A stretch of DNA of 52,588 bases. Source: Methanobacteriota archaeon. Its GTDB lineage: Archaea; Thermoplasmatota; Thermoplasmata; RBG-16-68-12; SOIM01. The position numbers and the translations under genes are program-made. The stretch's first letter is position 1. Every line of letters starts with the position of its first letter. The notes beneath the pieces were generated by a model. The model ran no database searches. It was given only the letters and a program-made list of their open reading frames with translations, and was not told where the DNA came from. Positions 7,855-24,600 of the stretch are shown in pieces. Location of the stretch: NCBI GenBank assembly GCA_020345725.1, contig CP070767.1:179215-231802 (forward strand), read 5' to 3'.

Positions 7855-8271
7855 CTACATCTTGTAAGGACTGGGACCCAGTTGCTTCAGAGTATCTGTC
7901 ATCTCTTGGACAACTCTCGCGAATTTGTCCCCCTCTGATGCTGAAACCCACTCCAATTTGAACCTCTCAGGCTCAAGACCGAAGTCCTCAAGCATGAGGT
8001 CAATGGCCTCCGCCCTTGCCTCTGCCCTCAGGTTTCCCTCGAGATAGTGGCAGTCCCCCGGATGACATCCGCACATCAGAACACCATCAGCTCCCTTTGT
8101 CAGTGCATTGATCACCAGATTGGGATGCACCATTCCAGAACACATGACCCGGATTATCCTGATGTTCGGAGGTTATTGAATTCGAGACGTTCCAGCCAAA
8201 TCCGCACCAGCATAAGAACACCAGTTGCAGAGGAATCCTATGATCAGAGGTTCATAATCCTGTTCCTCCAA
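7855..8271 (-). pseudogene. mvhD: MvhD-domain gene interrupted by an in-frame TAA (8173-8175) at a conserved Tyr codon. The downstream ATG-ORF (7855-8145) lacks the CNWC motif.
   Basis: Manual translation gives (TTG)[50 protein letters not shown]...GCHPGDCHY. The three paralogues in this window have Y at the stop position. The only available start is a TTG abutting the hdrA TAG. Confidence 0.8.
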
Positions 8272-11200
8272 CTATGCCACCCCCAAACAAGCGTCAATCA
8301 TAGCATTTAGCTGGTCGAGCTTGAATTTCCATATGAATATACCTTCTTTGGGACATGTAGCTTGGCAACAACCGCAGCCCTTGCAGGCCGCTTCATTCAC
8401 GTCCACAGTCTTCTTAACCGAACCGCTGCTCATGTACTCTATCAGCGTTATCGCATCGTATGGGCAAGGTTCCACACAGTAGGCGCATCCATCGCAGTTC
8501 TTGTCCACCACGTGCGATATGGTGGGCTCGATTTCTATCTCGTCCTTGGATAGAATCGTTGCAGCCCGGGCAACTGCACCGTAAGCCTGAGCTATGCTCT
8601 CATCAACGAACTTGGGTCCGTGGGCAAGGCCGCACAGGAAGACTCCTTCAGTAGCGAAATCGACTGGTCTGAGTTTCATGTGTGCCTCAAGGAAGAAGTT
8701 GTCCTTTGTCAAAGGTATCTTCAGCATCTGTCCCACCTCTTCGCTGTCAGGCTGTGGAAGAACCGGGACGCTTAGAACCAGGAAGTCTGTTTCAATCTTC
8801 AAAGGCTCGTCCAACACCGGGTCCCTGAGTGTAATCGTTAGACCGTCACCTCCAGGAACCACGTTCGGCTCATTGTCATCGTCATATCGTACGAACACAA
8901 CTCCCTTTTCGGAAGCCTCTTGGAAATGGTCCTCGTTGAAGCCATATGTTCTGATGTCCTTGTAGAGAATATACACGTCCGCGTCTGGGTTCTTTTCCTT
9001 GATCTTCAGTGCGTTCTTGATAGCTTCAGAACAGCATATCCTGCTGCAGTTGGGTCTTTCCTCGTTTCTGGATCCGACACACTGTATCATTGCTATCTTG
9101 CTCTTACTAGCAAGGTCAATCTCTCCCTTCGTCATCTTCTCCTCGAACTCTAGCTGGGTCATTACGTTCGGGTTCTGTCCGTAGAGGTATTCGGATGGTT
9201 TGTGCTCTATTCCTCCCGTAGCAACAATCACCACACCGTGGTCTATTGTCTCTCCTCCTTCGAGAGTTGTGGTGAAGTTCCCAATGTAACCGTCTATCTT
9301 CTCGATTTTACTTCCGATGTGTACGTTCACTTTTGGATTCTCATTGACCCGTGTAGTAATCTCTTCCAATTTCTTCTGGGGGTCCGCCTTCGCAAGGAGG
9401 TGATGAATCCTCTTTAGATTTCCACCCAGTTCGTTTTCCCTTTCAACAAGATGTACATCGAATCCTTGGTCAGCAAGACCCAAGGCAGCGGTCATTCCGC
9501 TGAGGCCTCCTCCTATCACCAACGCGGTCTGGTTCACAGGTAGTTTCCCCTTCTGCAAGGGATCAAGGAGGGCAGTCTTTGCCACAACCATTCTGACAAG
9601 GTCCTTTGCCTTCTCAGTAGCCTTCTCCTTCTCGTGCATGTGAACCCACGAGCCCTGATCCCTTATGTTGGCCATCTCGAACAGATAGGGGTTCAATCCA
9701 GCCTCGTGAAGGGTCTCCTGAAACAACGGTTCATGGGTTCTTGGACTGCAGGAGGCAACTATCACTCTATTCAGATTCTCCTCCTTTATGACCTCCTTCA
9801 TCTTTGTCTGTGTGTCGTCCGAACAAGTGAAGAGGTTCTCGTCCGCGAAGACCACGTTGGGCAATGTCTTGGCGTATTCCACAACCCCAGGAACGTCCAC
9901 AACACTGCCTATGTTTATTCCGCAATGGCAGATGAAGACGCCAATCCTTGGCTCCTGACCAGTAACATCGATCTCTTCTGGATATTCTTTCTTCTGTGTC
10001 AGAGTATCTCTTGCCGATGACACCACATTTGCCGCTCTCGCAGCTGCCCCAGATGCCTCAGCAACTGTCCCAGGTATGTCCTTTGGACCTGCGAATGCTC
10101 CTCCGACGTATATGCCCGGCCTGGATGTGTCGAGCGGATCGAATAGCTTGGCCTCCACGAAGTTGTGTCCGTTAAGCTTGAATCCCAACCGGTGGCTCAA
10201 TATCTCTGCTTCCACGGGAGGGTTCATAGCTATTGACAGCACAACCATGTTGAAGACCTCTTGGACCACTTCACCCTTCTCTACATAGGAAACTATCAGA
10301 TCTTCTGTGTCTGGATCCTCCTCAACTCCCGAGACCCTTGACCTGACGAATCTCACTCCAGCCTCATCCTCAGCCCTGATGTAGTACTTCTCGAACTCCT
10401 TTCCGTACGCTCGCATGTCCATGAAGAATATGGTCGGCTCGATATCCTCGAAGTGCTCCTTTGCGATTATTGCTTCTTTGAGTGCATACATGCAGCAAAC
10501 AGCAGAACAGTATGTGTTACCCTTCGCCTTATCCCTGGAACCCACACACTGGATCCACGCCACCTTCTTAGGTATGTCTCCGTCTGAAGGTCTGACAACA
10601 GTACCCAGGTGAGGGCCAGTCGCACTCAACATCCTCTCAAACTCGAGGCTTGTGAGGACGTTCTTGAACCTTCCATATCCATATTCGCTTCTGATAGTCG
10701 GGTCGAACTTCGATGAACCTGGAGAGAGCACAATAGATCCAACTTGGAGCTCCAAGATTTTCTCCTTCTGATCGTATTCGACAGCCTCTGCCTTACACTC
10801 TCCCTCGCAGATTCCACAGCCAATGCACTTCTCCCTGTCTATCATGTAGACCAAGGGGACTGACTGAGGATACCTCACATAGACAGCCTTCCTGTGCCTC
10901 AATCCCTCGTTGAACTCGTCAATCGCTTCGGTGGGGCATTTCTCGGCACAAACACCGCAACCTGTACACTTCTCTTCATCGATGCGCCTTGGGTATTTCT
11001 TCAAAGTCACCAGGAAGTTGCCAGCTTCACCGTCAATCATCTCTACTTCCGCATTTGTAATGAGCTCAATGTTCTCATGGCGTCCTGTCGCAACGAGCTT
11101 GGGAGCCATTATGCACATAGCGCAGTCGTTGGTGGGGAACGTCTTGTCCAGCTGGGACATGACTCCGCCGATGCTTGGCCCTCTTTCCACCAGGTAGACC

Positions 11201-11289
11201 TTGAATCCTGCATCTGCCAGGTCGAGTGAGGACTGCATTCCGGAAATGCCGCCTCCGATGACCATCACTGCTCCTACGGGCTCTGCCAT
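8272..11289 (-). CDS. hdrA: Double-length HdrA-like flavo-iron-sulfur protein (1005 aa from ATG 11289; the ORF track starts at 11319)
   Basis: N-terminal half: GGGISGMQ, FPTNDCAMC, an inserted ferredoxin (CTGCGVCAEKCP, CIGCGICEGEC), CVGSRD and CCMYALKEA. C-terminal half is a complete canonical HdrA: VFICHCGINIG, ASCSPRTHEP, second GGGLSGMT, CVGSRNEERPNCSRICC, FFLEAHMKLRP and a C-terminal CDGCAYCVEPCP / CKGCGCCQATCP. SD GGGAGGTGA precedes ATG 11289. Confidence 0.9.
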   Translation of the reverse strand: MAEPVGAVMVIGGGISGMQSSLDLADAGFKVYLVERGPSIGGVMSQLDKTFPTNDCAMCIMAPKLVATGRHENIELITNAEVEMIDGEAGNFLVTLKKYPRRIDEEKCTGCGVCAEKCPTEAIDEFNEGLRHRKAVYVRYPQSVPLVYMIDREKCIGCGICEGECKAEAVEYDQKEKILELQVGSIVLSPGSSKFDPTIRSEYGYGRFKNVLTSLEFERMLSATGPHLGTVVRPSDGDIPKKVAWIQCVGSRDKAKGNTYCSAVCCMYALKEAIIAKEHFEDIEPTIFFMDMRAYGKEFEKYYIRAEDEAGVRFVRSRVSGVEEDPDTEDLIVSYVEKGEVVQEVFNMVVLSIAMNPPVEAEILSHRLGFKLNGHNFVEAKLFDPLDTSRPGIYVGGAFAGPKDIPGTVAEASGAAARAANVVSSARDTLTQKKEYPEEIDVTGQEPRIGVFICHCGINIGSVVDVPGVVEYAKTLPNVVFADENLFTCSDDTQTKMKEVIKEENLNRVIVASCSPRTHEPLFQETLHEAGLNPYLFEMANIRDQGSWVHMHEKEKATEKAKDLVRMVVAKTALLDPLQKGKLPVNQTALVIGGGLSGMTAALGLADQGFDVHLVERENELGGNLKRIHHLLAKADPQKKLEEITTRVNENPKVNVHIGSKIEKIDGYIGNFTTTLEGGETIDHGVVIVATGGIEHKPSEYLYGQNPNVMTQLEFEEKMTKGEIDLASKSKIAMIQCVGSRNEERPNCSRICCSEAIKNALKIKEKNPDADVYILYKDIRTYGFNEDHFQEASEKGVVFVRYDDDNEPNVVPGGDGLTITLRDPVLDEPLKIETDFLVLSVPVLPQPDSEEVGQMLKIPLTKDNFFLEAHMKLRPVDFATEGVFLCGLAHGPKFVDESIAQAYGAVARAATILSKDEIEIEPTISHVVDKNCDGCAYCVEPCPYDAITLIEYMSSGSVKKTVDVNEAACKGCGCCQATCPKEGIFIWKFKLDQLNAMIDACLGVA

Positions 11290-11290
11290 T

Positions 11291-12064
11291 CTAGTCACCT
11301 CCCACCCTAAGAGCAACATAATAGGGAGTCATTCCTTCTATATGGTCAACTGCAAGGAGGTTCTTCTGTCTCAGAGTTGCGATGTGCTCCACAATTCTGT
11401 CTGTTGGGAGTTTAGTGACCTGGGACAGCTCCTTTGCTGAAGCAGGTTTGCTTGATGTTATTTCAAGAATCAGGCTTCTTCGGAATTCATCCTCGATTGC
11501 AGCGTCTATGATCTCTCGCATCTCATCTTCTGTTTTCTTCTCTCCATAGACGTTTCCATCCTCTATCATTCCGACTTCGTGCCCAAGAAGGGCTCTGATA
11601 CGGAAATCAAGGGAAGTGTCAACTGCCGCTCCGACCCTGCTTGCCAGGTCCGAGTCTTCCATCACCTTTGAAGGACCCAATTCCTTTATCTTCTCGGTGA
11701 ATTCAGCGACCGTCGAGGCAAACCTCTCTCCCTCTGAAGCGCTTATCCACTCAAGACGGAATCTGTCCACTTCCAAGCCCGCTTTCTCCATGAGCCTCCT
11801 TATGACAAAGGCCCTCTTCTCTGTGTGATAGTTGCCCGAAATATAGTGACAATCGCCGATGTGACATCCACCTATCATGATTCCGTCCGCACCCTCTTTG
11901 AAAAGTGTCAGGACTATCATCGGGTCTACCCGGGCACTGCACATGACTCTGATGATTCTAATCTCTGGAGGATATTGGTATCGGCTCACTCCGGCCAAAT
12001 CGGCACCCGCATACGAGCACCAGTTGCAGAGAAAACCCACTATCTTAGGTTCGAACTCAGTCAT
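11291..12064 (-). CDS. mvhD: MvhD-domain protein with a C-terminal winged-helix-like domain (257 aa)
   Basis: [21 protein letters not shown] and GGCHIGDCHY (MvhD/FlpD domain). After a ~70-aa linker comes SAKELSQVTKLPTDRIVEHIATLRQKNLLAV (HTH-like). The ATG overlaps the stop of the upstream hdrA part (TGATG). Confidence 0.85.
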   Translation of the reverse strand: MTEFEPKIVGFLCNWCSYAGADLAGVSRYQYPPEIRIIRVMCSARVDPMIVLTLFKEGADGIMIGGCHIGDCHYISGNYHTEKRAFVIRRLMEKAGLEVDRFRLEWISASEGERFASTVAEFTEKIKELGPSKVMEDSDLASRVGAAVDTSLDFRIRALLGHEVGMIEDGNVYGEKKTEDEMREIIDAAIEDEFRRSLILEITSSKPASAKELSQVTKLPTDRIVEHIATLRQKNLLAVDHIEGMTPYYVALRVGGD

Positions 12065-14025
12065 CACATCGCCCCCTGGAGAATGCTCCTACCTTGAGCA
12101 AGTAGCTGATCATCTGTGTAATTCATCATCTGGATAGCTTTCTCGGGGCATGTCGCTCCGCAGCAACCGCACCCCTTGCAGGCCGCAGCAAGAACCTCTG
12201 CGACTCCGTCATCACTCAACCTGATGGCACCATAGGGGCAATTGGCTTCACACGTTCCACAACCGGTGCAGATTTCTGGGTCGACCTGGGCTAGTATCGC
12301 TTCCGCTTGAATGAACCCTCTGGCCATTGGAATCGCAGCACGAGAAGCAGTCCCCAGTCCTTGTGCAACGCTCTCCGTGATATCCGCAGGTCCCCTCGCT
12401 GTTCCGCACACAAAGATACCATCTGTCGCGAAGTCAATAGGTCTTAGCTTCATGTGGGCCTCAAGGAAGAACCCGTCCCGTCCGATAGGGATCTTGAGCT
12501 TCTTCGACAGGTCCGCGGCATCAGGAGGAGCGATCAAGGGAGTTGCCAGCACAACCATGTCGGCCTGCAGCTTCCTTTCTGTCTTGAGTGTCTCATGGTA
12601 ATAGTTCACGACCAACTTGTCCCCTTCCTGAGTTACCTTGGGAAGGTTGTCAGTCGTGTATCTTACGAACCTGATTCTCTTCTCCCTCGCCTTGTTGTAG
12701 TAGACCTCGTGGTCTGCTCCGTATGTTGTCACATCCCTGTTGAATATGGTTATCTCCGGTCCTCCAGTTGGAGCGGGGCCAGGAGCCGCCTCGCCCTCCG
12801 CTGAAACCATCCGCCTTCTTCTCCTTCTCCTCGATGATATCTCAGGGACGGAAACATCCACCTCTACTCTCTCGGCACCTTCTTCGCCCATTATCTCTGC
12901 AAAATTCTCTGTGATATACAGCGCGTTCTTTATCGAGATGACGCAGCAAATCCTCGAGCAGTAAGACTTATCCTGTCCCCTTGACCCAACACACTGGATG
13001 AAGGCTACATTCTTGATCTTGGGGAGCTTGCCGCTCTTACAAAGGATCTCAAACTCTGTCAGCGTCACTACATTGTCGTACATCCCGTATCCATAGAGTC
13101 CTTCAGGTATGTACTCCAACGCTCCTGTTGCTACAATGATCGTGCCCACCTTGACTTCCTTGCTGGAACCGTTGGTGACGATGGTTGTGTCGAAGTTTCC
13201 GATGAACCCACTCACGGACTCCACCTGCGAGTTCAAATGAACTGTGATATTCTCATGTGCCTGGACGTGTTCAATTAGCGGTTTGATCGTGTCCTCGGCA
13301 CTCTTGTCCCCCAGGGACAAACTGTTCAAGTTCCTTGTGAAACCTCCCAAAACACCCTCCTTCTCAACCAGATGGACATCAAAACCCTGGCGTGCAACGG
13401 AGAGGGCCGCGCTCAATCCTGCCACCCCACCTCCTATGACTAGAGACCGGGGAACAACGTCCACCTTCATCTCTTCTTGCGGAACCAACAGGGCAGCTTT
13501 GGAAACTGAGGATTTGATCAGGTCCTTCGCTTTCCGGGTCGCATCTTCCTTTTCCTTCATGTGGACCCAGGAACACTGCTCTCTGATGTTCGCAAACTCA
13601 AACAGATACTTGTTGAGACCTGCTTCCTCGCAAACTCCCTGGAACAGAGGTGCGTGCGTTCTGGGTGTGCAGGACGCCACTATGACTCTGTTCAGCTTGT
13701 GCTCTTTGATAGCATCTCGTATTGCAGTCAATCCGTCCTCCGCACAGGTGTAGAGGTTATCTCTGGCGAAAGCGACGTTTGGCAGTGTTTTCACATATTC
13801 CACAACAGCTGGAACATCCACGAATCCACCTATGTTCGTGCCGCAGTGGCACACAAATACTCCAATCCGCAGTTCTTCTGAGTCTGGTGTTGGCGGCGTT
13901 TCAGGAGCCTCCTCATCCGGTTCAACTGGGGGTTCGGCAATTGGTTCTTGCTGAACCACTGGAGTCTGTGGGGCCTGCTCTTCTTGCTCGATTGGAGTTT
14001 CCGGAGTCTGCTCCTCTGGCTCCAT
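12064..14025 (-). CDS. hdrA: HdrA, canonical-type C-terminal portion of a split long HdrA (653 aa) with a Pro/Glu-rich N-terminal tail and a poly-Arg insertion
   Basis: VFVCHCGTNIGG, ASCTPRTHAP, GGGVAGLS, CVGSRGQDKSYCSRICC, FFLEAHMKLRP, CTGCGTCEANCP and CKGCGCCGATCP. Residues 1-50 are low complexity (PETPIEQEEQAPQTP...). Seven consecutive Arg at 12811-12831. Confidence 0.9.
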   Translation of the reverse strand: MEPEEQTPETPIEQEEQAPQTPVVQQEPIAEPPVEPDEEAPETPPTPDSEELRIGVFVCHCGTNIGGFVDVPAVVEYVKTLPNVAFARDNLYTCAEDGLTAIRDAIKEHKLNRVIVASCTPRTHAPLFQGVCEEAGLNKYLFEFANIREQCSWVHMKEKEDATRKAKDLIKSSVSKAALLVPQEEMKVDVVPRSLVIGGGVAGLSAALSVARQGFDVHLVEKEGVLGGFTRNLNSLSLGDKSAEDTIKPLIEHVQAHENITVHLNSQVESVSGFIGNFDTTIVTNGSSKEVKVGTIIVATGALEYIPEGLYGYGMYDNVVTLTEFEILCKSGKLPKIKNVAFIQCVGSRGQDKSYCSRICCVISIKNALYITENFAEIMGEEGAERVEVDVSVPEISSRRRRRRRMVSAEGEAAPGPAPTGGPEITIFNRDVTTYGADHEVYYNKAREKRIRFVRYTTDNLPKVTQEGDKLVVNYYHETLKTERKLQADMVVLATPLIAPPDAADLSKKLKIPIGRDGFFLEAHMKLRPIDFATDGIFVCGTARGPADITESVAQGLGTASRAAIPMARGFIQAEAILAQVDPEICTGCGTCEANCPYGAIRLSDDGVAEVLAAACKGCGCCGATCPEKAIQMMNYTDDQLLAQGRSILQGAM

Positions 14026-15332
14026 TAACCAGTCACCCCCTTTGCAAGAACGGTTTCAACGGCTCTAGCTGCTGCGGCTGAAGCTTCGGCGACAGCCTCA
14101 GGTATGTCCATTGGTTCTCTGCAGTATCCTGCCAGATACACTCCTTCTCGAACAGTATCCATTGGCGCAAGTATCCTATCCTTGGATTCAAAGAACTTAA
14201 ACTCAGTAAGCGGAATGCCCAACATTTCCGCGATCTTGATTGCATCCGGCCTGGGAACCAAGGTTGTCGCGAGGACCACCATATCGAATTCCTCCTTCTC
14301 CGGTCGGCCTGCAACGTCGTACACTACGATTGGATTGTTATTCTCAGGATTCTCCTGGACGGTGGCATCCGAGTTGATGTATCTCACACCGTAGTCATTC
14401 TTGGCCCGCTCAACATATTCAAAGAAACCCTTCCCGAAGGCCCTGAGGTCCTTGTAGAATATCGTTGAATCGATATCGTCATGATGCTCTCTTGCGAGCA
14501 TGGCTTCCTTGGTAGAGAACATACAGCACACAGAGCAGCAGTATGCATGCCCCAATTGTGGGTTCCTTGAACCAACACACTGAATGAATGCGAGCTTGTG
14601 TGGTCTCTCTCCATCTGACCTTCTCTTCATCTCTCCCCCTGTAGGGCCAGATGCGTTGATCATCCTCTCATATTCCATGCCAGTGAAGACATTGGGATAT
14701 TTCCCATAGCCGTACTCTGATGCCGGAGTTGGGTCCCAGATGTCATACCCTATAGCCACGATTATTGAACCAACATCAAGTACGACCTCTTCGTCCTTCT
14801 GATCAAAATCAACTGCCTCTCTTTCACAGAGGATCTTGCAGGCTCCACATTTCTCCTTAATGAACCAAGTGCAGTTCTCTTTGTCTATTGTGACCACCCT
14901 GGGCACTGCCTGTGCGAATGGCATGTAGATTACCTTTCTCTCACCAAGACCTTGATCAAACTCGTTCGGAACCTTCTGCGGGCATTTCGCAACGCACTCT
15001 TCGCACCCAGTACATTTCGTCTCATCGACATATCGAGCTTTTCTCAGCACCTTCACCTTGAACTTCCCGGCTTCACCATCGACCCCCACGACCTCTGAAT
15101 AGGTCAGAACATCGATGTTTGGATGGCCGTAACAGTCTGCCATCTTGGGTGCAAGGATGCAGATGGAACAGTCATTCGTTGGGAACGTCTTATCCAGCTG
15201 AGCCATTCTACCCCCAATGCTCGGGGTCTTCTCAACGAGGTAGACCTTCCCGCCCTTGTCTGCTATGTCTAGCGATGCTTGAATACCGGCGATTCCGCCT
15301 CCAATCACCAATACGTCTGTGGACACATTCAT
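14025..15332 (-). CDS. hdrA: HdrA-like / QmoA-like flavoprotein, N-terminal portion of a split long HdrA (435 aa)
   Basis: GGGIAGIQ, FPTNDCSIC, CTGCEECVAKCP, CGACKILCE, CVGSRN and CCSVCCMFSTKEA. Collinear with the N-terminal halves of the three fused copies. The TAA stop overlaps the next ATG (TAATG). SD GGGAGGT. Confidence 0.88.
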   Translation of the reverse strand: MNVSTDVLVIGGGIAGIQASLDIADKGGKVYLVEKTPSIGGRMAQLDKTFPTNDCSICILAPKMADCYGHPNIDVLTYSEVVGVDGEAGKFKVKVLRKARYVDETKCTGCEECVAKCPQKVPNEFDQGLGERKVIYMPFAQAVPRVVTIDKENCTWFIKEKCGACKILCEREAVDFDQKDEEVVLDVGSIIVAIGYDIWDPTPASEYGYGKYPNVFTGMEYERMINASGPTGGEMKRRSDGERPHKLAFIQCVGSRNPQLGHAYCCSVCCMFSTKEAMLAREHHDDIDSTIFYKDLRAFGKGFFEYVERAKNDYGVRYINSDATVQENPENNNPIVVYDVAGRPEKEEFDMVVLATTLVPRPDAIKIAEMLGIPLTEFKFFESKDRILAPMDTVREGVYLAGYCREPMDIPEAVAEASAAAARAVETVLAKGVTG

Positions 15333-15430
15333 ACCTCCCTAGAATTCGGGTAACAATACTGATTATTCTGATTGTTGGGACATGTGATAGGCCTCATCCG
15401 ACCTCCCCTTTCCTTGAAATAGTCAAATCG

Positions 15431-15440
15431 AATATAAAGA
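15431..15440 (-). promoter_or_regulatory. TATA-like box (TCTTTATATT on the minus strand) in the only sizeable spacer of the hdrA array
   Basis: The 122-nt gap 15333-15454 contains TTTATAT about 100 nt upstream of the hdrA-N ATG. This may be an internal promoter. Confidence 0.3.
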
Positions 15441-15454
15441 CTACTCTAATTGGC

Positions 15455-15898
15455 TTATGCAACAACTTCCTCTCCTTCCCCCAGACTCTCCTTCTTTGTC
15501 TTCTTCCAATCTTCCCTTGACATCTCGAACAGTGGAGTTGTGAACCGCTCTTTCTTCTTGAACTCCCGTACGTATCTTTGACAATCAGGATAAGTGCACG
15601 GATCGCAGTGTTTCTCCTTGCAGGCAAGCTCCACGACAACATATCTTCGGTCCGCTTCGATTCGCCCCTTCTTCTCTACGGTGCGGAGCTCGAACATACT
15701 TGTAGTGAATGGCTTCTTCTTGCCCATCTCCCGCGTGAATCTCTGACAATCAGGATAGGTGCACGGATCGCAATGCCTCTCCTTGCAGGCGAGTTCCAGC
15801 AACATGTATCTTCGGTCAATCTCCTTGTCAGTTCCCTTCTGAGTTTTCCCAGGGTTCTTTGACTTGGGTTTCTTCTTTCTTTCTTTGCTCTTCGGCAT
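15455..15898 (-). CDS. Very basic, internally duplicated Cys-rich protein (147 aa); two copies of DRRYxxxELACKE(R/K)HCDPCTYPDCQR(F/Y)
   Basis: The ATG is 3 nt after the stop of the mvhD-hdrCB fusion. It has a 55-aa tandem repeat, each carrying C-x4-C-x2-C-x4-C plus a His, and Lys-rich termini. No family recognised. Confidence 0.75.
   Translation of the reverse strand: MPKSKERKKKPKSKNPGKTQKGTDKEIDRRYMLLELACKERHCDPCTYPDCQRFTREMGKKKPFTTSMFELRTVEKKGRIEADRRYVVVELACKEKHCDPCTYPDCQRYVREFKKKERFTTPLFEMSREDWKKTKKESLGEGEEVVA
15563..15817 (-). repeat. Intragenic direct repeat: two ~90-nt copies (15563-15652 and 15728-15817), period 165 nt
   Basis: Hand alignment shows a block nearly identical in both copies (GACAATCAGGATA(A/G)GTGCACGGATCGCA...CTCCTTGCAGGC...ATCTTCGGTC). 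It encodes the duplicated Cys motif. Confidence 0.85.
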
Positions 15899-15901
15899 CC
15901 C

Positions 15902-17551
15902 TCAATCCTCCAAAGCCTCTGCTACAGCAATCGTGAAATCCTTCAGGGGGATCTCCACCATTTCTCTTTCAACTGGGATCTCATCCCTGACTGAACAATC
16001 CAAATGAACGTAACACTTGGGACAAGCGGTAAGAACTGCGGCCGAATTGGTCTTCTTGGCTTCCACCATTCTTTCTATCTGCATCTTCTTAGCAGTTCCA
16101 TCACAGTTCATCCATGCACTCACTCCGCAGCATGCACCCTTGTCTCGAATTCTCTCCATCTCCACCAGGTTCATTCCATTGATCTTCGAAATTGCGTCCC
16201 TTGGGGCGTCATATATTCCACAATGCCTGGAAAGTCTGCAAGGTTCGTGATAAGTGACGTTCAAATCAAGCCCATCCTTGAATTTCAGCTTCCCAGCGTC
16301 CATCAGTTCACCTATGTACTGGGACATGTGGATCATCCGGAATTCCAAGTCCCCGGCCATTGCCTGATAGTCAATATTAAACGTCCTGAAACACTCCGCA
16401 CAGGTGTAGACAACAGTCTTGGCGCCGCTCTTCCGAATCAGGTCCAGATTGTGGTTCATCAGGTTCTCAACATTTGCCTCGTCGCCGGTCCAATTCAAGT
16501 CATGACCGCAACACTTCTCCCCATTGCTTACCACGGGTACGACCCCCGCCTTGTTCATGATCTTGACGGCGCTTCGGTTTATCTCACTAAGGTTCAATTC
16601 TCTGTCTTGGAAAATGATGTCCAGATGGGGCGTGCAGCCCGTGAAATAGAAGACTTCACCAGTGTCCGCGATTTGTAGGCTCTCATCCACCCAACCCAAC
16701 CTCTTCTGTTCGAAGTCTGTGTTTGCCATTATCCTCATGGTGGAATGCAGAAGCCCACCCTGTGAACAGACTGGAACAACCCCCAACATGGAAGCTTCGA
16801 CCCTCATACCTCTAATGAATTCAGCGTAGTCCACCTTGTATGGACACATAGCACTGCATTCAGCGCAGGTTGTGCAGGACCAGATGTCCTTCTCTCGTGC
16901 CAAATCGGTTGCAACTCCCTCTAGAGCTTTCACCACAATCAATCTGGGAGCGAACTTCTCATCGTTATTGGCTACTGAGCATACACTGGTGCATTTCCCG
17001 CATTCAACACAGTCAAAAGCTCCAGTGTCTTGTATGAGCTCTTTGATCATCACTGCACTACCGGCCTGCTCATCTGGAGGTTCTTTCTCTGTGAACTTCA
17101 GCGGATTCGGACCAAGTTCAGCAATCTGCTGATTGAATTCGTTCATGACTTCCGCGAACTTGGATCCCTCAGAGGCGGAAATCCATTCCAGTCGAAATCT
17201 ATCTGAGCCAACTCCCAGAATATCGAGGAGCTCTGAAACCATCTTTGCCCTCTTCTCCGCCTTCTCGTTTCCTGAGACATAGTGGCAGTCACCTATGTGG
17301 CAACCAGCCACAAGAACACCATCGACACCGCTCTCAAGAGCGTCAATAATGAACGAGGGCTCCACTCTGCCTGAACACATGACTCGAATGATCTTGATAT
17401 TTGGTGGATACTGCATTCTGGAAACGCCAGCCAGGTCCGCACCAGCATATGAACACCAATTGCAGCAGAAGGCAATTATGTTAGGCTCGAAGGGTGCGTC
17501 GGTGGCTGCTACCTGTTCCGTTTCTGCTTCCTGCATTTCTTCACCTCTCAT
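15902..17551 (-). CDS. MvhD-HdrC-HdrB triple fusion protein (549 aa)
   Basis: N-terminus: [31 protein letters not shown] (MvhD). Middle: CVECGKCTSVCS and CTTCAECSAMCP (HdrC-like 2x[4Fe-4S]). C-terminus: two CCG domains (FYFTGCTPH...KCCGHD and YHEPCRL...ACCGVSAW...CPKC). Confidence 0.88.
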   Translation of the reverse strand: MRGEEMQEAETEQVAATDAPFEPNIIAFCCNWCSYAGADLAGVSRMQYPPNIKIIRVMCSGRVEPSFIIDALESGVDGVLVAGCHIGDCHYVSGNEKAEKRAKMVSELLDILGVGSDRFRLEWISASEGSKFAEVMNEFNQQIAELGPNPLKFTEKEPPDEQAGSAVMIKELIQDTGAFDCVECGKCTSVCSVANNDEKFAPRLIVVKALEGVATDLAREKDIWSCTTCAECSAMCPYKVDYAEFIRGMRVEASMLGVVPVCSQGGLLHSTMRIMANTDFEQKRLGWVDESLQIADTGEVFYFTGCTPHLDIIFQDRELNLSEINRSAVKIMNKAGVVPVVSNGEKCCGHDLNWTGDEANVENLMNHNLDLIRKSGAKTVVYTCAECFRTFNIDYQAMAGDLEFRMIHMSQYIGELMDAGKLKFKDGLDLNVTYHEPCRLSRHCGIYDAPRDAISKINGMNLVEMERIRDKGACCGVSAWMNCDGTAKKMQIERMVEAKKTNSAAVLTACPKCYVHLDCSVRDEIPVEREMVEIPLKDFTIAVAEALED

Positions 17552-17566
17552 ACACGGCCTGGCTGT

Positions 17567-20500
17567 TCAAGTCTCCTCCTGCATAGTTGCGGGTGCCGAT
17601 GCCTTTCTCATCATCGCGATAATCTGGTCACTCGTGAATCCTCTCATTTGAATGGATTTGTTGCAGCAAGCAACAGAACAGGCACCACAGCCCTTGCATA
17701 GCGCTTCCACGATATGGGAGACCTTGGTACCATCTTCCCTCTCAACCAGTTCTGGAGCATTGAACTCACACGTTTCTACACACCTGCCGCAGCCCCTGCA
17801 TTTGTCCTCATCAACCACGGCTATGGTCGCCTCTGCCTCCAGAGCATCTTTGGCGAGAATGGTCATCGCCCTTGAAGCAGCTCCGCTGGCTTGCGCAATG
17901 TTCTCTTCGAAGAACTTCGGAAGATGGGCCAAACCACAGAGGAATATCCCATCAGCTGCGAAATCTATTGGCCGAAGCTTCATATGCGCCTCGAAGAAGA
18001 ATCCGTCCTTGTTCAATGGCACCTTCAGCATCTGGGAAAGAGGAACGTTGTCTGGATTTGAGACCGTGGCCGCGCTCAGTACCAGGATGTCTGGCTTGAT
18101 CAATATCTCCTCATTGAGGATCTGATCCAACACCGCCACTTCAAGCGAACCGTCCTGTCCGACTTCCACGACCGGTTTATCCTCCTCTGAGTACCTTGTG
18201 AAGATCACACCCTCATCAGCAGCCTTGTTGTAGAAATCCTCTCGGAAGCCATAGGTCCGCATGTCTCTGAACATCACATAGATGTTGGATTCCGGGTTAA
18301 CCTCTTTCGCCTTCAAAGCATTCTTCACCGCCTCAGTGCAACATATCCTGCTGCAGTAGGGTCGTTCCGGTACCCTGGAACCCACACATTGAATCATCGC
18401 AATTGTCTTGGCCTCCATTCCATCCGACTCATTGAGCATATTCTCGAATTCAAGTTGCGTCATGACCCTCTGGTCTTGTCCGTAGAGATATTCAGTCGGT
18501 TTGTACTCCAGACCTCCCGTTGCTACGATGATGGTGCCTACGCGGAATTCCTTTGTTCCGCCATTCGATTCTGTGACGCAGTCGAAGCTACCAACACAGC
18601 CTGAGACATCCTTGAGCTGGGTTTCTGTATAGGTCTCAATGAGAGGGTTTCCAGTGACCGAATCCTTGAGTTTGGAGAGGAACGTTTGCACATCCTCACC
18701 CTCCAGACCGTAGTGGATTCTTTTCATTAACCCTCCCAAATCCTTTTCTTTCTCCACGAGATGAACCTTGATTCCTTGATTGGCAAGTTCTTGGGCAACC
18801 GTCATCCCAGATAGGCCACCGCCCACAACGAGGGCTGACTTCTCAACTTCTATCATTATCTCTGGGAGAGGAACCAAAAGACGGGATTTCTCAACAGCCA
18901 TGGAGACTAGCAGCTTTGCTTTCTCAGTTGCCTCCTTCGGAAGGCTGGAATGCACCCAGGAGCATTGATCACGGATGTTTGCCATCTCGAAGACGTGGGC
19001 ATTCAAACCCGCCTCCATTATTGTGCTTTGGAATAGGGGAGCATGAGTTCGTGGTGTACATGATGCGACGATGACCCTGTTGAGGTTATGCTCCTTGATC
19101 TTCTCCTTGATGTTCTTCTGTGTGTCCTGGGAGCATGTGTACAAATTGGCCTCGGCATGTACGACATTGGGGAGCTCTTTTACATGTTCAACGACGCCGG
19201 GAACATCCACGACCCCACCGATGTTTATGCCGCAGTGACAGACAAAGACGCCTATCCTGGGTTCCTGTCCCGTCAAATCGATTTCGGGAGGATATTCCTT
19301 CTTTTCGATAAGCTTCCCTCGTTCGCTGGCCACGATACTCATTGCTTTTGCTGCAGCCCCAGATGCCTGAGAAACACTATCTGGAATGTCTTTTGGCGAA
19401 CTGAAGGCCCCACAGACAAATATGCCAGGGACCTTTGTATCCAGCGGACTGAAGATGTCTGTCTCGCAGAAATCATGCTTGTTCAGTTCAATTCCAAAAG
19501 TCTCCGCGACTTCCTGCGCGCTTTTGGGCGAATCTGTTCCAACCGAGAGCACAACTAGATTGAACACCTTTCTTCTCATCTCCCCTTTTTCTGAGTACCA
19601 AATCGTAAGATCGTGCGTCTCTGGATTCTCTTCAATACTGGCTACCCTTTGATTCCTGGTGAATTGCAGACCGTACTCCTTTTCAGCCCGAACATAGTAT
19701 TCGTCGAATTCCTTTCCAAACGCTCTCATGTCCATGAAGAAGATGTGGGATTTGAGACCCGGAGTGTGCTCTTCAGCTATCGTAGCCTCCTTTATCGCAA
19801 ACATGCAGCAGACGGACGAGCAGTAGGTGTTGCCCACCTGAACATCCCTGCTTCCCACACACTGGATGAAAGCCACATTCTCTGGAACCTCACCATTCGA
19901 GGGTCGAAGGACAACGCCTCCATAGGGTCCAGTCGGGCTGAGCATCCTCTCCAATTCTAGTGAGGATATGACATTCGGATATCGCCCATATCCATATTCC
20001 CTTTTGAGCTTAAGGTCAAACTCGGTGAAACCTGGAGCCAGGATTATGGCACCAACGTCAATCTCAATAGGTCTCTCCTCTTCTGTGAAGTCTATGGCAC
20101 CAGCCTCACACTGGGTCTCGCATATACCGCACCCAATGCACGCTTCCTGATCTATTGTATGGGCCGGTGGTACCGCTTGAGGATACTTCATGTAGATTGC
20201 CTTTCTCACCTTCAGTCCTTTGTTGTATTCATCTGGGACTTCTACAGGACATCTCTGTGTGCATAGACCACAGCCAGTGCATTTCTCCTCATCAACGCAC
20301 CGGACCTTTCTTTTCACTGTGACTCTGAAGTGGCCAATCTCCCCGTCGATCTTCTCAACTTTGGAATTGGTAAGAAGCTCAACGTTATGATGCCTTCCAG
20401 TTGCCACCAGTTTGGGTGCCATTATGCACATCGCGCAATCGTGAGTGGGGAATGTCTTGTCCAACTGGGACATCGCCCCTCCTATTCTCGGGGAACTGTC

Positions 20501-20635
20501 CACTAGGTAGACCTTCAAATCGGTATCTGCAAGATCAAGAGCGCACTGGGTGCCAGAGATTCCTCCGCCAACAACAAGAACAGCCCCGACCTTATCTGAG
20601 ATCCTCTCTATCACCTTCTCTGAGGTCCTCTCCAC
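17567..20635 (-). CDS. hdrA: Double-length HdrA-like flavo-iron-sulfur protein (1022 aa, GTG start)
   Basis: Same two-half architecture as 8272-11289: GGGISGTQ, FPTHDCAMC, CTGCGLCTQRCP, CIGCGICETQC, then VFVCHCGINIGG, ASCTPRTHAP, GGGLSGMT, CVGSRVPERPYCSRICC, FFFEAHMKLRP, CRGCGRCVETC and CKGCGACSVAC. Confidence 0.9.
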   Translation of the reverse strand: MERTSEKVIERISDKVGAVLVVGGGISGTQCALDLADTDLKVYLVDSSPRIGGAMSQLDKTFPTHDCAMCIMAPKLVATGRHHNVELLTNSKVEKIDGEIGHFRVTVKRKVRCVDEEKCTGCGLCTQRCPVEVPDEYNKGLKVRKAIYMKYPQAVPPAHTIDQEACIGCGICETQCEAGAIDFTEEERPIEIDVGAIILAPGFTEFDLKLKREYGYGRYPNVISSLELERMLSPTGPYGGVVLRPSNGEVPENVAFIQCVGSRDVQVGNTYCSSVCCMFAIKEATIAEEHTPGLKSHIFFMDMRAFGKEFDEYYVRAEKEYGLQFTRNQRVASIEENPETHDLTIWYSEKGEMRRKVFNLVVLSVGTDSPKSAQEVAETFGIELNKHDFCETDIFSPLDTKVPGIFVCGAFSSPKDIPDSVSQASGAAAKAMSIVASERGKLIEKKEYPPEIDLTGQEPRIGVFVCHCGINIGGVVDVPGVVEHVKELPNVVHAEANLYTCSQDTQKNIKEKIKEHNLNRVIVASCTPRTHAPLFQSTIMEAGLNAHVFEMANIRDQCSWVHSSLPKEATEKAKLLVSMAVEKSRLLVPLPEIMIEVEKSALVVGGGLSGMTVAQELANQGIKVHLVEKEKDLGGLMKRIHYGLEGEDVQTFLSKLKDSVTGNPLIETYTETQLKDVSGCVGSFDCVTESNGGTKEFRVGTIIVATGGLEYKPTEYLYGQDQRVMTQLEFENMLNESDGMEAKTIAMIQCVGSRVPERPYCSRICCTEAVKNALKAKEVNPESNIYVMFRDMRTYGFREDFYNKAADEGVIFTRYSEEDKPVVEVGQDGSLEVAVLDQILNEEILIKPDILVLSAATVSNPDNVPLSQMLKVPLNKDGFFFEAHMKLRPIDFAADGIFLCGLAHLPKFFEENIAQASGAASRAMTILAKDALEAEATIAVVDEDKCRGCGRCVETCEFNAPELVEREDGTKVSHIVEALCKGCGACSVACCNKSIQMRGFTSDQIIAMMRKASAPATMQEET

Positions 20636-20646
20636 GGATTCTGATG

Positions 20647-21651
20647 CTATTCAACCACCCCCGAAAGCAGTCCTCTTACACAGACCGAGAAGTGGCACAC
20701 GTTGCTTCTTCTCCTCTCGCAGTTGTAACATCTCAATGTAAGCAGCAGTTCCCTCACTATCCATTTCTTTGTCGCTTCATCTACGTCTGGAAGACTGGCA
20801 ATACTCATCTGGATGCTCTCCTTCTGAACCTTCGCCCATAGAGGTAAGGTGGAGATCTCCTGCCCCTCTTCTATCTGGGAAATATACAAAGGCGACGTGC
20901 CTTGGATTTCCGTCATCGTAACAAGTCCTCTATCGCGCAGTAGTACAATGTGCCTCAGAACATCCCTCTCCGGCAGATTAACCCTCTCGGATATCTCTTT
21001 CACAGATTGAGGCTGTCCTTTGGTTGCGAGAAGGACCCTGCATCTCCCATATTCCTCCAATATCGCCTTTTCCACGACTTCGTGGACCTTTCCGTTCGGA
21101 TTCATACGATTGAATGCATTGGGTTTGGTCTCAAGCAGGTGTTCCTTGTTCATCAACAGACTCAGTCTGAAATCGTCGACTGCACTGCGGGCCACATACA
21201 AACCTTCCATTATGTCGATGTCAGGAGCATCACCCGCAACAGGATTAGGTCCCAATTCGGTCACCGTGTTTACGAACTCCGTCACAATCTCTGCAAAAAG
21301 CTTGCCTTCTGAAGCGGACACCCATTCCATTCTCAATCTCTCTGGCTCAAGACCAGTGAGTTCTAGTAGTCTCCTTAGTGTGTCTATTCGCCTCGCTGCG
21401 TGATTGTTCCCCTCTTGATAATGACAATCTCCTGGATGACAACCGCAGATTAGCACTCCATCGGCACCTCTGAGGAAGCCTTCGATAACCACGGCTGGGT
21501 CGACACTACCACTGCACATTACTCTTATGATCCTCAAGTTAGGTGGATAGGTGAATCTGGAGACTCCGGCCAAATCGGCTCCTGCATAAGAGCACCAGTT
21601 GCAGAGGAATCCGACAATCTTGGGAGTGAAACCGTTGTCCTGCTTCTCCAT
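20647..21651 (-). CDS. mvhD: MvhD-domain protein with a winged-helix-like domain and an extra ~70-aa Cys-containing C-terminal extension (334 aa)
   Basis: [21 protein letters not shown] and CGCHPGDCHY. HTH-like SVKEISERVNLPERDVLRHIVLLRDRGLV. The extension, absent from the 257-aa paralogue, ends in CYNCERRRSNVCHFSVC. Confidence 0.8.
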   Translation of the reverse strand: MEKQDNGFTPKIVGFLCNWCSYAGADLAGVSRFTYPPNLRIIRVMCSGSVDPAVVIEGFLRGADGVLICGCHPGDCHYQEGNNHAARRIDTLRRLLELTGLEPERLRMEWVSASEGKLFAEIVTEFVNTVTELGPNPVAGDAPDIDIMEGLYVARSAVDDFRLSLLMNKEHLLETKPNAFNRMNPNGKVHEVVEKAILEEYGRCRVLLATKGQPQSVKEISERVNLPERDVLRHIVLLRDRGLVTMTEIQGTSPLYISQIEEGQEISTLPLWAKVQKESIQMSIASLPDVDEATKKWIVRELLLTLRCYNCERRRSNVCHFSVCVRGLLSGVVE

Positions 21652-21652
21652 C

Positions 21653-24600
21653 TCAGCCCCCCTCTATAGCGGCTGTCAGCTGGGCAATGATTTGGTCGCG
21701 GGAGAAATGCTTCAAGGTGATCGCTCTCTCTGGACATCCTGCTGCACATGTACCACATCCTTTGCACAGCGGTTCTGAGACTTTGGACTTGTTTGTTTCC
21801 GGATCTACTTCTATAGCTCCGAATGGACAGATGAACTCACATGTCTTGCACCCAACACAGAGGTCCTCATTCACGCAAGACACTACGCCCTCCGATTCAA
21901 TCTCGTCCTTGCTTAATATCGTCAAGGCTCTCGCAGCTGCAGCCATCGCCTGGGATATGTTCTCATCCACGAACTTGGGCGACTGGGCCAAACCGCAGAC
22001 AAAGATGCCATCTGTTGCGAAATCTACTGGTCTCAGTTTTGCATGAGCTTCAAGGAAGAACCCATCCTTGCTGAGTGGCACCTTCAGTATCTCGGATAGG
22101 CCATCATTGTCGGGATTCGGCCGAGTTGCGGCGTTCAGAACCAGGAGATCTGGCTTTATGAGGAGGTCAACCATGAGGAATTTGTCCTTTACCCTTACCT
22201 CAAGTGGCTCTCCTTGTGTGACAATCGGTGGGCTATCCTCTTCGAACCGAATGAATATGACACCCTCTTTGCTGGCTTCTTTGTAGTACTTCTCTCGGAA
22301 ACCGTACGTGCGTACGTCCCTGAAGACCACATAGACAGAGCTGTCTGGGAACCTCTTTTTCAATTCGAGTGCATTTCCAATAGCTGTAGTGCAACAGATT
22401 CTGCTACAATTAGGATATTCCTCATTCCTCGAACCCACACACTGTATTATGACCACTTCCTTTGGTGCCTTGAAATCACCTTTGTACATCCTTTCTTCGA
22501 GCTCGAGTTGAGTGATGACTCTGGAATCTTCACCATACAGATACTCCTCGGGCTTGTATTCCACCGCTCCGGTAGCGACAACGATCACACCATGGTCTAT
22601 TTCGCTGCCATCTGATAACCTGCTTTTGAAATTGCCAACATATCCGCTCGTTCTCTCCAGTTCTGTCTTGAGATGAACATGTATCTTTGGGTTGTTCTGG
22701 CAGGCATCGCTCTTCTCCTTCAGAATCGCCTGTGGATCTTCTCCCGTGAGTGAATGGGTGACTCTCCTCATGTTGCCGCCCAGTACATCCTCCTTCTCAA
22801 CTAGATGGACATCAAAACCCTTCTTGGCAATCTCCAAGGAAGCTGTCATGCCACTGAGTCCTCCACCTATCACAAGAGCTGACTTGGTGACGGAATGAGG
22901 GATTTTCTCCAGAGGCCCCAAGAGCCCAGCCTTGGCAACTGCCATACGAACAAGTCTCTTGGCCTTCTTGGTTGCTTCCACGTGATTGTCCGAATGGACC
23001 CAAGAACACTGTTCCCTGATATTGGCCATTTCAAAGAGATAGGGATTTAGTCCACCTTCCCTGATTGTTTCCTGAAAGAGTCCCTCATATGATCTTGGAC
23101 TGCAGGATGCCACTATGACCCTGTTCAGATTGTGTTCCTCTATCCTCTCCCGGATGCTCTGTTGGGTGTCAAGGGAGCAAGTGTAGAGATTGGCTTCGGC
23201 ATGCACAACGTTAGGAAGTGTCTTGGCATACTCCGCCACATCAGGAACATCCACAACTCCACCGATGTTTATGCCGCAGTGACAGATAAAGACGCCCACT
23301 CTGGGCTCGACACCCTCGATATCTTTTTCAGCTGGATATTCCTTCTCTTGAAGGTCATTCTCACTCTTCTCTGGAAGTGAACCGGCCATCGATGCCGCTC
23401 CGCTGGCTTGGGCAACCGTATCGGGTATGTCTCTTGGTCCAGAGAGCATTCCGGATACATAGACTCCGGGAACAGAGGTCTCAAGGGGAGTGAACATGCC
23501 GGTTTCACAGAAGTCAAATTCGTTAAGTGAGATGCCCAACATCTTGGAGATGTCCTCAATATTCTCCGGCGGCTCTAGGCCAACAGAAAGGACAACAAGG
23601 TCGAAGACCTCTTCTCGAATCTCCCCCAACTCTGAGTAGGTGATGACAAGTCTATCATCATCGAGGGTCTCCCCCACGGATGCAATTCGGTTATTCCGTA
23701 TTATCCCGACTCCATACTCTTCTTCGGCCCTGACTCGGTAATCCTCGAACTCCTTTCCAAATGCTCTCATGTCCATACAGAATATGCGCGATCGGATGTC
23801 TGGATGGTGGTCATGTGCATCGATTGCCTCCTTTAAGGCGTACATGCAACATACCGATGAACAGTAGATGCCTCCATAGACTTCGCTCCGAGAACCTACG
23901 CACTGTATGAAGGCGATATTCCTGGGAGGCTTTCCATCTGAAGGTCTCTGAATCTCCCCCATTGTGGGTCCTGTGGCGCTCAACATCCTCTCCAATTCGA
24001 GGCTGGTGATTACATTCGGGAGAACACCGTATCCATATTCAGAAATCGCTCTGGGATTGTATGGCTTGGCACCGAACCCAATGATGATCGACTCGACATT
24101 GAGAGTGACTTCTTCAGGCTTCTGTTCAAAGTCGATTGCCTCGGCTTCGCAGAATCTCTGACAAGCCCGGCACTTTCCAGTCCGGAAATAGGTGCAGTTT
24201 TTCTCATCAATCACAAAGGTAGTGGGTATAGCTTGCGGATACATTCTGTAGGCGGCTTTTCTCTCAGACTGGTCCATGTCGAACTCATTTGGCACCTTTA
24301 CTGGGCACTTCTCCGCGCAAACACCACAGCCTACGCACTTCTTGTCGTCCACGTACCGGGGGTGATTAAGAACGGTGACTCGAAAATCACCTTTCTGTCC
24401 CTCGACATGTGTAATTTCGGAGCTCATCATCAGTTGTATGTTGGGATGTCTTCCCACCTCCACGAGCTTGGGAGAAAGGATGCACATAGCACAGTCGTTC
24501 GTTGGGAAGGCCTTGTCCAGTTGAGCCATTCTTCCCCCCAGGGCCGGGGCTTTTTCGACAATGGTGACGCGAACGCCTGCATTTGCCAGGTCCAATGCTG

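Follow-up and report, generated by a model that had tools for sequence, protein, structure and literature searches.

The stretch of DNA analysed here, referred to as the window, comprises 52,588 nucleotides (nt) of contig CP070767.1 (assembly GCA_020345725.1, positions 179,215 to 231,802) from a Methanobacteriota archaeon of the Thermoplasmata, and carries a large array of Hdr-like genes. Within this array, a minus-strand open reading frame (ORF) at 15455..15898 encodes a small, basic protein of 147 amino acids (aa) with two Cys-rich repeats, each containing a four-Cys (Cys4) motif. Its translation agrees exactly with that given in the earlier note, an annotation of this DNA made from the sequence alone, and is 100% identical to the NCBI entry [quoted passage not shown]. 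The same note had placed the ORF 3 nt after an mvhD-hdrCB fusion gene; indeed, exactly 3 nt separate the upstream stop from its ATG, and the end of the upstream gene contains a GGAGG 7-8 nt before this ATG. The features of the locus, in the direction of transcription, are the following:

15902..17551, minus strand: upstream gene of 549 aa (isoelectric point, pI, 4.9) with an MvhD (FlpD) domain, an HdrC-like 4Fe-4S dicluster domain and two HdrB-like CCG domains.
15455..15898, minus strand: the complete ORF, 147 aa plus stop, for the small basic protein with two Cys4 repeats (ORF call and translation).
15818..15898, minus strand: N-terminal Lys-rich tail, aa 1-27, with 11 K/R and 3 D/E (translation and alignment).
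15653..15817, minus strand: repeat 1, aa 28-82, with strand RRYMLLELA, Cys loop, helix (P)DCQRFTRE, basic linker and strand FTTSMFEL (order of elements taken from low-confidence AlphaFold2 models).
15746..15787, minus strand: Cys4 motif 1, C38-x4-C43-x2-C46-x4-C51 (CKERHCDPCTYPDC), its Cys columns invariant in the family.
15488..15652, minus strand: repeat 2, aa 83-137, built like repeat 1; a C-terminal helix (aa 128-139) is predicted to follow.
15581..15622, minus strand: Cys4 motif 2, C93-x4-C98-x2-C101-x4-C106 (CKEKHCDPCTYPDC), its Cys columns likewise invariant in the family.
15333..15454, minus strand: 122-nt intergenic region 3' of the ORF, with a TATA-like TTTATATT and a GGGAGG ribosome-binding site.
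14025..15332, minus strand: downstream gene, an HdrA core with a TrxR-like FAD domain and an inserted ferredoxin.

Pairwise comparison of the ORF with six homologues yielded dN/dS ratios of 0.07-0.15, indicating that it evolves under purifying selection and is therefore a real, selected gene. The product consists of the Lys-rich tail (aa 1-27), repeat 1 (aa 28-82), repeat 2 (aa 83-137) and a short acidic tail. Approximately 40% of its residues are charged and its pI is 9.41, compared with 4.9-5.8 for every Hdr-like neighbour in the window and a median of 5.3 for the window proteins. The N-terminal tail varies in length and sequence across the family alignment, and is probably disordered according to structure prediction, with predicted confidence values (pLDDT) below 50 in this region.

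The two 55-aa tandem repeats described in the earlier note were found at residues 28-82 and 83-137, sharing 58% identity at the amino acid level and 68.5% at the nucleotide level, with the third codon position being the least conserved (0.58, vs. 0.73-0.75 for the first two). The duplication is also visible in the DNA with the reported 165-nt period; nevertheless, it takes the form not of 90-nt blocks, but of one 129-nt direct repeat with 75% identity (15524-15652 and 15689-15817). The C-x4-C-x2-C-x4-C spacing noted for each repeat corresponds to Cys38/43/46/51 and Cys93/98/101/106, and all eight Cys of this tandem form are invariant among 137 aligned homologues. Likewise invariant, in alignments of 50 to 137 homologues, are E35/E90, P45/P100, Y48/Y103 and P49/P104, so that the invariant columns of the domain alignment read E, C, C, P, C, Y, P, C, and the core signature of the family can be written as hhhE-h-[SA]-C-x4(5)-C-x-P-C-[TV]-Y-P-x-C-[QP]-R-[FY].

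Different was the outcome for the His that had been called invariant. Across 413 family domains this position is occupied by Lys in 335, by His in 44 and by Gln, Arg, Ala, Asn or Ser in 34; the His is identical only between the two repeats of the 147-aa protein and in its closest relatives. Since the position is mostly Lys across the family, the His is not a metal ligand, and its candidacy as a fifth conserved ligand was discarded. The suggestion of a metal centre in each repeat, by contrast, gains from the four invariant Cys of every domain, and one putative centre per repeat, although without the His in its site, is well supported by the alignments.

Comparison of the 31-residue cores of repeats 1 and 2 within one protein gave a likeness of 0.74 for the window protein (range in the family, 0.48-0.87), whereas the window repeat cores resemble the repeats of distant members at 0.56-0.58, on average below the within-protein value. 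The flanks of repeat 1 and repeat 2, on the other hand, are distinct from each other and orthologous throughout a large clade. The combination of within-protein core likeness with distinct, orthologous flanks suggests that the duplication is old and that the repeats have since undergone partial concerted evolution or been under shared constraints. One related locus (L009, 7911-8207) carries, in the canonical hdr position, a 98-aa variant with a single domain whose N-terminal part resembles repeat 1 and whose C-terminal part resembles repeat 2, as would be expected for the product of unequal recombination between the repeats; its position indicates that one domain can suffice in the hdr context.

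A word-indexed search of 5.8 billion proteins retrieved 18 close homologues, all with the two-repeat plan and 119-165 aa long, except for one frameshifted sequence of 196 aa; their source names are exclusively hypothetical proteins of metagenome-assembled genomes (MAGs) of Methanobacteriota or Methanomassiliicoccales. When 1.84 billion cluster representatives were searched exhaustively with a HMMER profile, 27 matches were obtained at E<=1e-3, which include other two-domain proteins as well as single-domain proteins of 48-100 aa, and a profile built from 50 members retrieved 271 clusters in which every source-given name is "hypothetical protein". No Pfam or NCBIfam model covers the family. Scanning one genome for each GTDB species yielded 74 loci, all from Thermoplasmata- or Methanomassiliicoccales-type MAGs with the exception of one "Paceibacterota" contig. 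This apparent bacterial occurrence (L061, contig DATEYD010000314.1) was rejected: over 3.5 kb the contig shares 96% identity with one from Thermoplasmatota (L074), and is therefore almost certainly mis-binned into a bacterial MAG. The family is thus new, unannotated and restricted to Thermoplasmata archaea. Literature searches turned up no paper describing the 147-aa protein, and the ORF goes unmentioned in genomic studies of the lineages concerned, which do report multiple hdr/mvh homologues (bioRxiv 10.1101/2020.03.09.984617; PMC12220078).

To describe the genomic context, ORFs were called in all loci, and their neighbours were clustered and labelled against the window proteins. Three subfamilies were distinguished, in all of which the basicity (pI ~9-10) is kept. 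Subfamily A comprises two-domain proteins and a few one-domain variants of 73-98 aa. Hdr-like genes are directly adjacent, co-localised and co-oriented in 50 of the 53 loci with non-mini members, the exceptions being L002, L004 and L008, paralogues outside the Hdr array that form subfamily B. The typical order in subfamily A is a double-HdrA gene (~1000 aa), MvhD-HdrCB, the ORF, an HdrA core (~433 aa), an HdrA (~620-660 aa), an MvhD (~258 aa) and another double-HdrA gene. The full canonical flanks, with the ORF between MvhD-HdrCB and the HdrA core, are present in 28 of the 50 loci and partial flanks in the other 22; in three close homologues an identical gene order was also found in precomputed gene calls. 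This order persists down to ~35% identity of the ORF, which is 35-45% identical to the query in most subfamily A loci, while the median identity of its neighbours is 57-70%. In the window, the gene upstream (15902..17551) carries FlpD/MvhD, a 4Fe-4S dicluster and two CCG domains and thus represents an MvhD-HdrC-HdrB fusion. The product of the downstream gene (14025..15332) aligns to HdrA2 residues 137-563 only, and hence lacks the N- and C-terminal Fe-S domains of canonical HdrA. In related loci the gap upstream of the ORF is 3-30 nt or an overlap, and the gap downstream is 100-220 nt and bears a probable promoter, which identifies the ORF as the last gene of the MvhD-HdrCB unit. Linkage to the junction between MvhD-HdrCB and the HdrA core is therefore strong and ancient, and involves translational coupling.

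The remaining members occupy other surroundings. In subfamily B, L002 and L004 lie downstream of an HTH_10 gene and small ORFs, and upstream of ParA/Mrp, two Nitro_FeMo-Co, two CbiA-Fer4, NifU_N and Zip genes; the CSMAG_404 genome has both an A copy (L006) and a B copy (L008). Subfamily C is a single-domain form of 46-50 aa, MPExVxKWNxxYExIETSC...CxPCTYPNCQR...FGK, found in 22 loci (within the range L057-L079, e.g., L057 7977-8126) downstream of IscS-IscU-PyrD-PyrK and convergent with a homocitrate-synthase-like gene; A and C forms occur together in at least 17 genomes. The linkage of homologues to hdr loci, on which the earlier note had made its reading depend, thus holds for 50 of the 53 non-mini loci but not for the paralogues L002, L004 and L008 or for the 46-50-aa subfamily. 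No further copy of the domain turned up in neighbouring proteins when its profile was searched against every ORF of the window and of 79 loci, and the possibilities that the ORF is a split-off HdrA N-terminal domain, or that its domain recurs inside the large neighbours, were accordingly dismissed.

The array in the window is unusually large. It contains three paralogous genes of ~1000 aa (8272-11319, 17567-20635 and 21653-24664, all on the minus strand), each with two HdrA-like FAD/NAD domains and several 4Fe-4S domains, which are interleaved with MvhD genes and lie near mvhAG, hycI and hdrBC. Several further MvhD copies are present in the array. One of the MvhD genes (20647-21651, minus strand), located between two double-HdrA genes and kept in L001, L003, L016 and L025, encodes a 334-aa protein in which an MvhD/FlpD [2Fe-2S]-type domain is joined to an ArsR/SmtB-type HTH (HTH_20, HTH_5); it looks as if an electron-transfer subunit had been turned into a redox-sensing transcription factor. 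Another mvhD, beside mvhG/mvhA (7855-8271, minus strand), has an in-frame TAA at 8173-8175 (SRIQ*PPNIR, where L001 has SRIQYPPNIR, with a Tyr), which may mean that the gene is a pseudogene, that the assembly has a point error here or that a nonsense mutation arose recently.

The 122-nt region between the ORF and the HdrA-core gene probably serves the HdrA-core operon as its promoter and leader. Just past the ORF stop, a perfect inverted repeat, TAGTC-N14-GACTA (15420-15443), brackets the TATA-like TTTATATT, and in the downstream gaps the TATA-like element lies ~100 nt ahead of the HdrA-core start. The arrangement of inverted repeat and TATA-like element is also found in L003 and L005, and partly in L001. 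A dimeric regulator, for instance the MvhD-HTH fusion, may use the inverted repeat as its operator; the repeat occurs as a single copy in the window, and with 53 of 100 shuffled sequences giving at least one match it is not significant alone. Between 15200 and 16000 no sigma-70 promoter or intrinsic terminator was detected, although those consensus models are not applicable to archaea. In more distant clades (L014-L049, e.g., L042 8346-8556) the motif AACGAAAC(A/G)NATAA, similar to BRE/TATA elements, lies ~100-120 nt before the HdrA-core start, a placement which implies that the HdrA-core operon has a promoter of its own and a 5' leader of unusual length.

Regarding known families, the query gave nothing above threshold in Pfam, NCBIfam or PHROGs, either as the whole protein or with each repeat alone. 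The conclusion of the earlier note that it belongs to no known family thus stands for the query in Pfam and NCBIfam, but 39 of 50 relatives scanned individually match PF04060 ("Putative Fe-S cluster") below threshold. PF04060 is the best-scoring Pfam family among these 50 relatives (best E 3.6e-5) and ties with Zn_Tnp_IS91 in frequency; in the members examined in detail it scores 16.7-21.6 bits against a gathering score of 23, and of the 120 homologues listed from the database, 4 carry a precomputed PF04060 match. In the relatives, the match covers the motif 2 region and spans positions 6-27 of the 33 in the profile, i.e., the C-x2-C-x4-C segment and the next helix, with the fourth Cys excluded. 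Two weak NCBIfam matches of the query itself (residues 74-116 and 93-116) fall on the Fe-S segment of PRK07118- and RsxB/RnfB-type models.

The family domain profile was further aligned by hhalign to six authentic PF04060 domains, one from E. coli RsxB, three from structures of RnfB and two from structures of CFeSP, which placed 19 columns in register, including three Cys, [YF]-P and an aromatic residue (P 5.9e-4). The score of 20.6 was reached by none of 300 column shuffles (8.9 +/- 2.3, maximum 17.8), and by 4 of 300 when the three Cys columns were kept fixed (9.7 +/- 2.9). These controls indicate that the likeness to PF04060, though short and below threshold, goes beyond composition and Cys spacing alone. 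The FeS (FdI) domain of RnfB/RsxB and of the CFeSP large subunit (CdhE/AcsC) has in common with the repeats the C-x2-C-x4-C core, with [YF]-P before the third Cys and an aromatic residue or Ala three residues on, at the helix start, as is apparent when CGQCGYPGCRPY is set against CDPCTYPDCQRY. In both repeats (CDPCTYPDCQRF and CDPCTYPDCQRY) the C-x2-C-x4-C with a Pro two residues before the third Cys, and the helix with an aromatic residue or Ala, are in register with E. coli RsxB and RnfB/CFeSP. Both are, moreover, small modules of ~50 aa with a single cluster, putative in the case of the repeats. They differ in that the fourth Cys of PF04060 follows 16-17 residues after the third, whereas here it lies x4 upstream of the first; that PF04060 has Gly after its Cys1 and Cys2, where the family has x-P and T; that beta-alpha-beta units are predicted here in place of the helical FdI; and that the family protein is strongly basic and occurs stand-alone or in tandem, not as the N-terminal domain of a larger subunit. 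In RnfB, the FdI domain is small and, in the published model, a mobile electron shuttle for which a [4Fe-4S] cluster is considered highly likely, and the CFeSP N-terminus, with a similar fold and Cys motif, carries a [4Fe-4S] cluster (PMC9588780).

Other comparisons were less close. MvhB and HdrC, accessory subunits of the polyferredoxin/ferredoxin type in Mvh/Hdr systems (Fer4, C-x2-C-x2-C-x3-C-P), are also small Cys-rich proteins of mvh/hdr operons that extend electron-transfer chains through tandem cluster-binding units, but the 147-aa protein differs from them in Cys spacing and fold, is basic rather than acidic, and shows neither a Fer4 HMM match nor the C-x2-C-x2-C-x3-C-P motif. The HdrB-type CCG domain (PF02754) was not matched by the query either; CCG domains sit in the adjacent gene. 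Compact Cys4 Fe-S sites are known in EndoIII/MutY (C-x6-C-x2-C-x5-C), SoxR (C-x2-C-x-C-x5-C) and WhiB-like proteins (C-xn-C-x2-C-x5-C), basic proteins that likewise place four ligands in a short loop containing C-x2-C; this likeness is at the motif level only, whereas the folds are different, no sequence or profile similarity to the 147-aa protein was found and the latter has no DNA-binding domain. Zn(Cys)4 sites of the zinc-knuckle, treble-clef or IBR type resemble the repeats in that all four Cys fall within a 14-residue span, with a single C-x2-C knuckle and a helix beginning at the last ligand, but the repeats have no second C-x2-C or C-x2-H pair and all scores are below threshold; similarly, with one C-x2-C pair per repeat and no significant Pfam or PDB match, they do not correspond to classical zinc-ribbon or rubredoxin-like knuckles. 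Sequence and profile matches in the PDB to retroviral Gag CA and to "CTWPxC" strings of Sp1/KLF C2H2 proteins (E >0.5) were set aside as chance.

AlphaFold2 models reached a mean pLDDT of 43 with a 17-sequence alignment and of 51 with a 137-sequence alignment, with values below 50 in the Cys loops. Only the order of elements was reproducible: in each repeat a strand, the Cys loop, a helix that starts at or just before the fourth Cys, and a strand. Foldseek comparison of the better model (pLDDT 51) with the PDB yielded nothing significant (best E 0.057). Generic ferredoxin-like (beta-alpha-beta x2) matches among the Foldseek results were treated as non-evidence; they are compatible with a pairing of the two units, which is an idea only.

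Our preferred, still tentative, interpretation, to which we assign a probability of about 0.42, follows the electron-transfer or adaptor role suggested in the earlier note: the 147-aa protein would be a basic metalloprotein with two centres that serves the acidic Hdr-like complex as an auxiliary subunit for electron transfer. The metal, the physical association with Hdr proteins and the electron-transfer role are those we infer in the following scheme. Each ~55-residue repeat would fold around one metal centre held by the four invariant Cys, most likely a [4Fe-4S] cluster by analogy with the C-x2-C-x4-C site of the RnfB/CFeSP FeS domain, with the upstream Cys (C-x4-C) providing the fourth ligand in place of the downstream one of PF04060. 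What favours a [4Fe-4S] cluster is the C-x2-C-x4-C core, which is of the PF04060 type, together with the Fe-S-related surroundings in which all three subfamilies occur. The protein would be co-produced with the MvhD-HdrC-HdrB fusion via translational coupling, and this basic protein would probably dock, as an accessory component, on the acidic Hdr-like proteins. The one or two additional redox centres that it supplies could in this way wire the modules of a multi-HdrA flavin-based electron-bifurcating complex, e.g., towards the HdrA core encoded next, possibly making up for the missing terminal Fe-S domains of the latter.

Several observations weigh against this interpretation. The query has no PF04060 match even at E<=10 and its relatives stay below the gathering threshold; the hhalign probability is only 29% over 19 columns; and the defining fourth Cys of PF04060 is absent, with no Cys after C51 or C106 within either repeat. 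The zinc families Zn_Tnp_IS91 (39 of 50 relatives) and IBR (35 of 50) have E-values only ~tenfold worse than those of PF04060. AlphaFold2 gives no confident fold, and the tentative beta-alpha-beta units differ from the helical FdI domain. In addition, the paralogues and the mini form lie outside hdr operons, so the domain is not Hdr-specific, and anaerobic archaeal genomes are very rich in Fe-S genes, which makes Fe-S neighbours weak evidence. Finally, electron-transfer Fe-S proteins are usually acidic, while the 147-aa protein is highly basic.

This basicity, with a pI of ~9.5 conserved in all subfamilies against the window median of 5.3, speaks for the alternative given in the earlier note, a nucleic-acid-binding regulator. 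It would depend on a metal, either Zn or a redox-sensing Fe-S cluster, and its Cys4 modules and Lys tail would bind DNA or RNA, possibly at the downstream promoter or leader of the HdrA-core operon. The constant presence of a 100-220-nt intergenic region with a TATA-like element after the ORF fits such a role, as do the stand-alone paralogous and mini genes with their own upstream gaps, the weak matches to zinc-finger families and the compact Cys4 motifs of the DNA-binding Fe-S proteins SoxR, EndoIII and WhiB. Nevertheless, we consider a regulator unlikely: no recognised DNA-binding fold or family emerged from the Pfam, NCBIfam, PDB or Foldseek searches, the array already encodes a dedicated MvhD-ArsR-HTH fusion, and the tight 3-nt coupling to an enzyme subunit suggests stoichiometric co-production. 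Besides, the palindrome at 15420-15443, itself not significant alone, would suit a dimeric HTH better than readers built of tandem direct repeats, and the N-terminal tail is not consistently basic in distant members.

The weak IBR and Zn_Tnp_IS91 matches would equally suit a purely structural role, in which the protein is a Zn(Cys)4 mini-subunit acting as molecular glue of the Hdr-like complex with no redox function, comparable to the small zinc subunits of RNA polymerase or ribosomes. Four Cys in 14 residues, a C-x2-C knuckle and the last Cys at a helix N-terminus recall treble-clef-like Zn sites, a basic charge would complement acidic partners, and the synteny is the same as that behind the electron-transfer interpretation. 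However, PF04060 outscores all other families, the two C-x2-C pairs spaced as in classical zinc ribbons are missing, and the invariance of residues that are not ligands (E, T-Y-P, Q-R) hints at more than a structural knot, which makes this possibility distinctly unlikely. The least likely of the roles considered is that of an Fe-S carrier or maturation factor, which would hold transient clusters on its Cys4 loops and deliver them to the cluster-rich Hdr-like proteins and other Fe-S enzymes. The occurrence of the domain in three different Fe-S-related contexts, with paralogues directly upstream of ParA/Mrp (ApbC-like), Nitro_FeMo-Co, CbiA-Fer4, NifU_N and Zip genes and the mini form downstream of IscS-IscU, speaks for it. 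Yet in known Fe-S carriers the cluster usually sits at a subunit interface, bound by 2-3 Cys, and not at a complete intramolecular Cys4 site such as each module would have, there is no similarity to Nfu, A-type, Mrp/Nbp35 or Grx proteins, the main subfamily is fixed within one enzyme operon, and Fe-S neighbours are common in these genomes.

A more far-reaching version of the electron-transfer interpretation, rather doubtful on the present comparisons, would extend it to the whole family. In this version, the domains would be Thermoplasmata-specific mini metal-cluster modules (beta-strand, Cys4 loop, helix, beta-strand) that pair into a ferredoxin-like alpha/beta sandwich with two [4Fe-4S] clusters, as a tandem here and as dimers in the 46-50-aa forms; giant multi-HdrA bifurcating complexes would have in the tandem form an electron-wire subunit that is obligatory and so far overlooked, and the mini and paralogous forms would serve other Fe-S enzymes.

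Elsewhere in the window, two genes on the minus strand (28673-32335 and 32349-35489) encode acidic giants (pI 4.05) of 1220 and 1046 aa with FG-GAP, Big_13 and PKD domains, which are probably surface or adhesion proteins unrelated to the Cys4-repeat ORF.

Arrays of multiple HdrA, MvhD and HdrCB genes are widespread in uncultured Thermoplasmata, including lineages basal to Methanomassiliicoccales, and have been proposed from genomic reconstructions to couple H2 oxidation to ferredoxin reduction (bioRxiv 10.1101/2020.03.09.984617). Located between HdrCB-type and HdrA-type modules, the ORF described here is the most conserved non-enzyme element of these arrays, and hence a concrete candidate for a missing subunit, possibly contributing two extra redox centres. 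At the same time, the family defines a compact Cys4 module of ~45 residues that exists in single-domain and tandem forms. If this module binds a [4Fe-4S] cluster, it would widen the repertoire of minimal cluster-binding motifs and provide a handy target for spectroscopy and design; if it is instead a Zn- or cluster-dependent regulator, it would represent a new type of archaeal regulator tied to redox metabolism.

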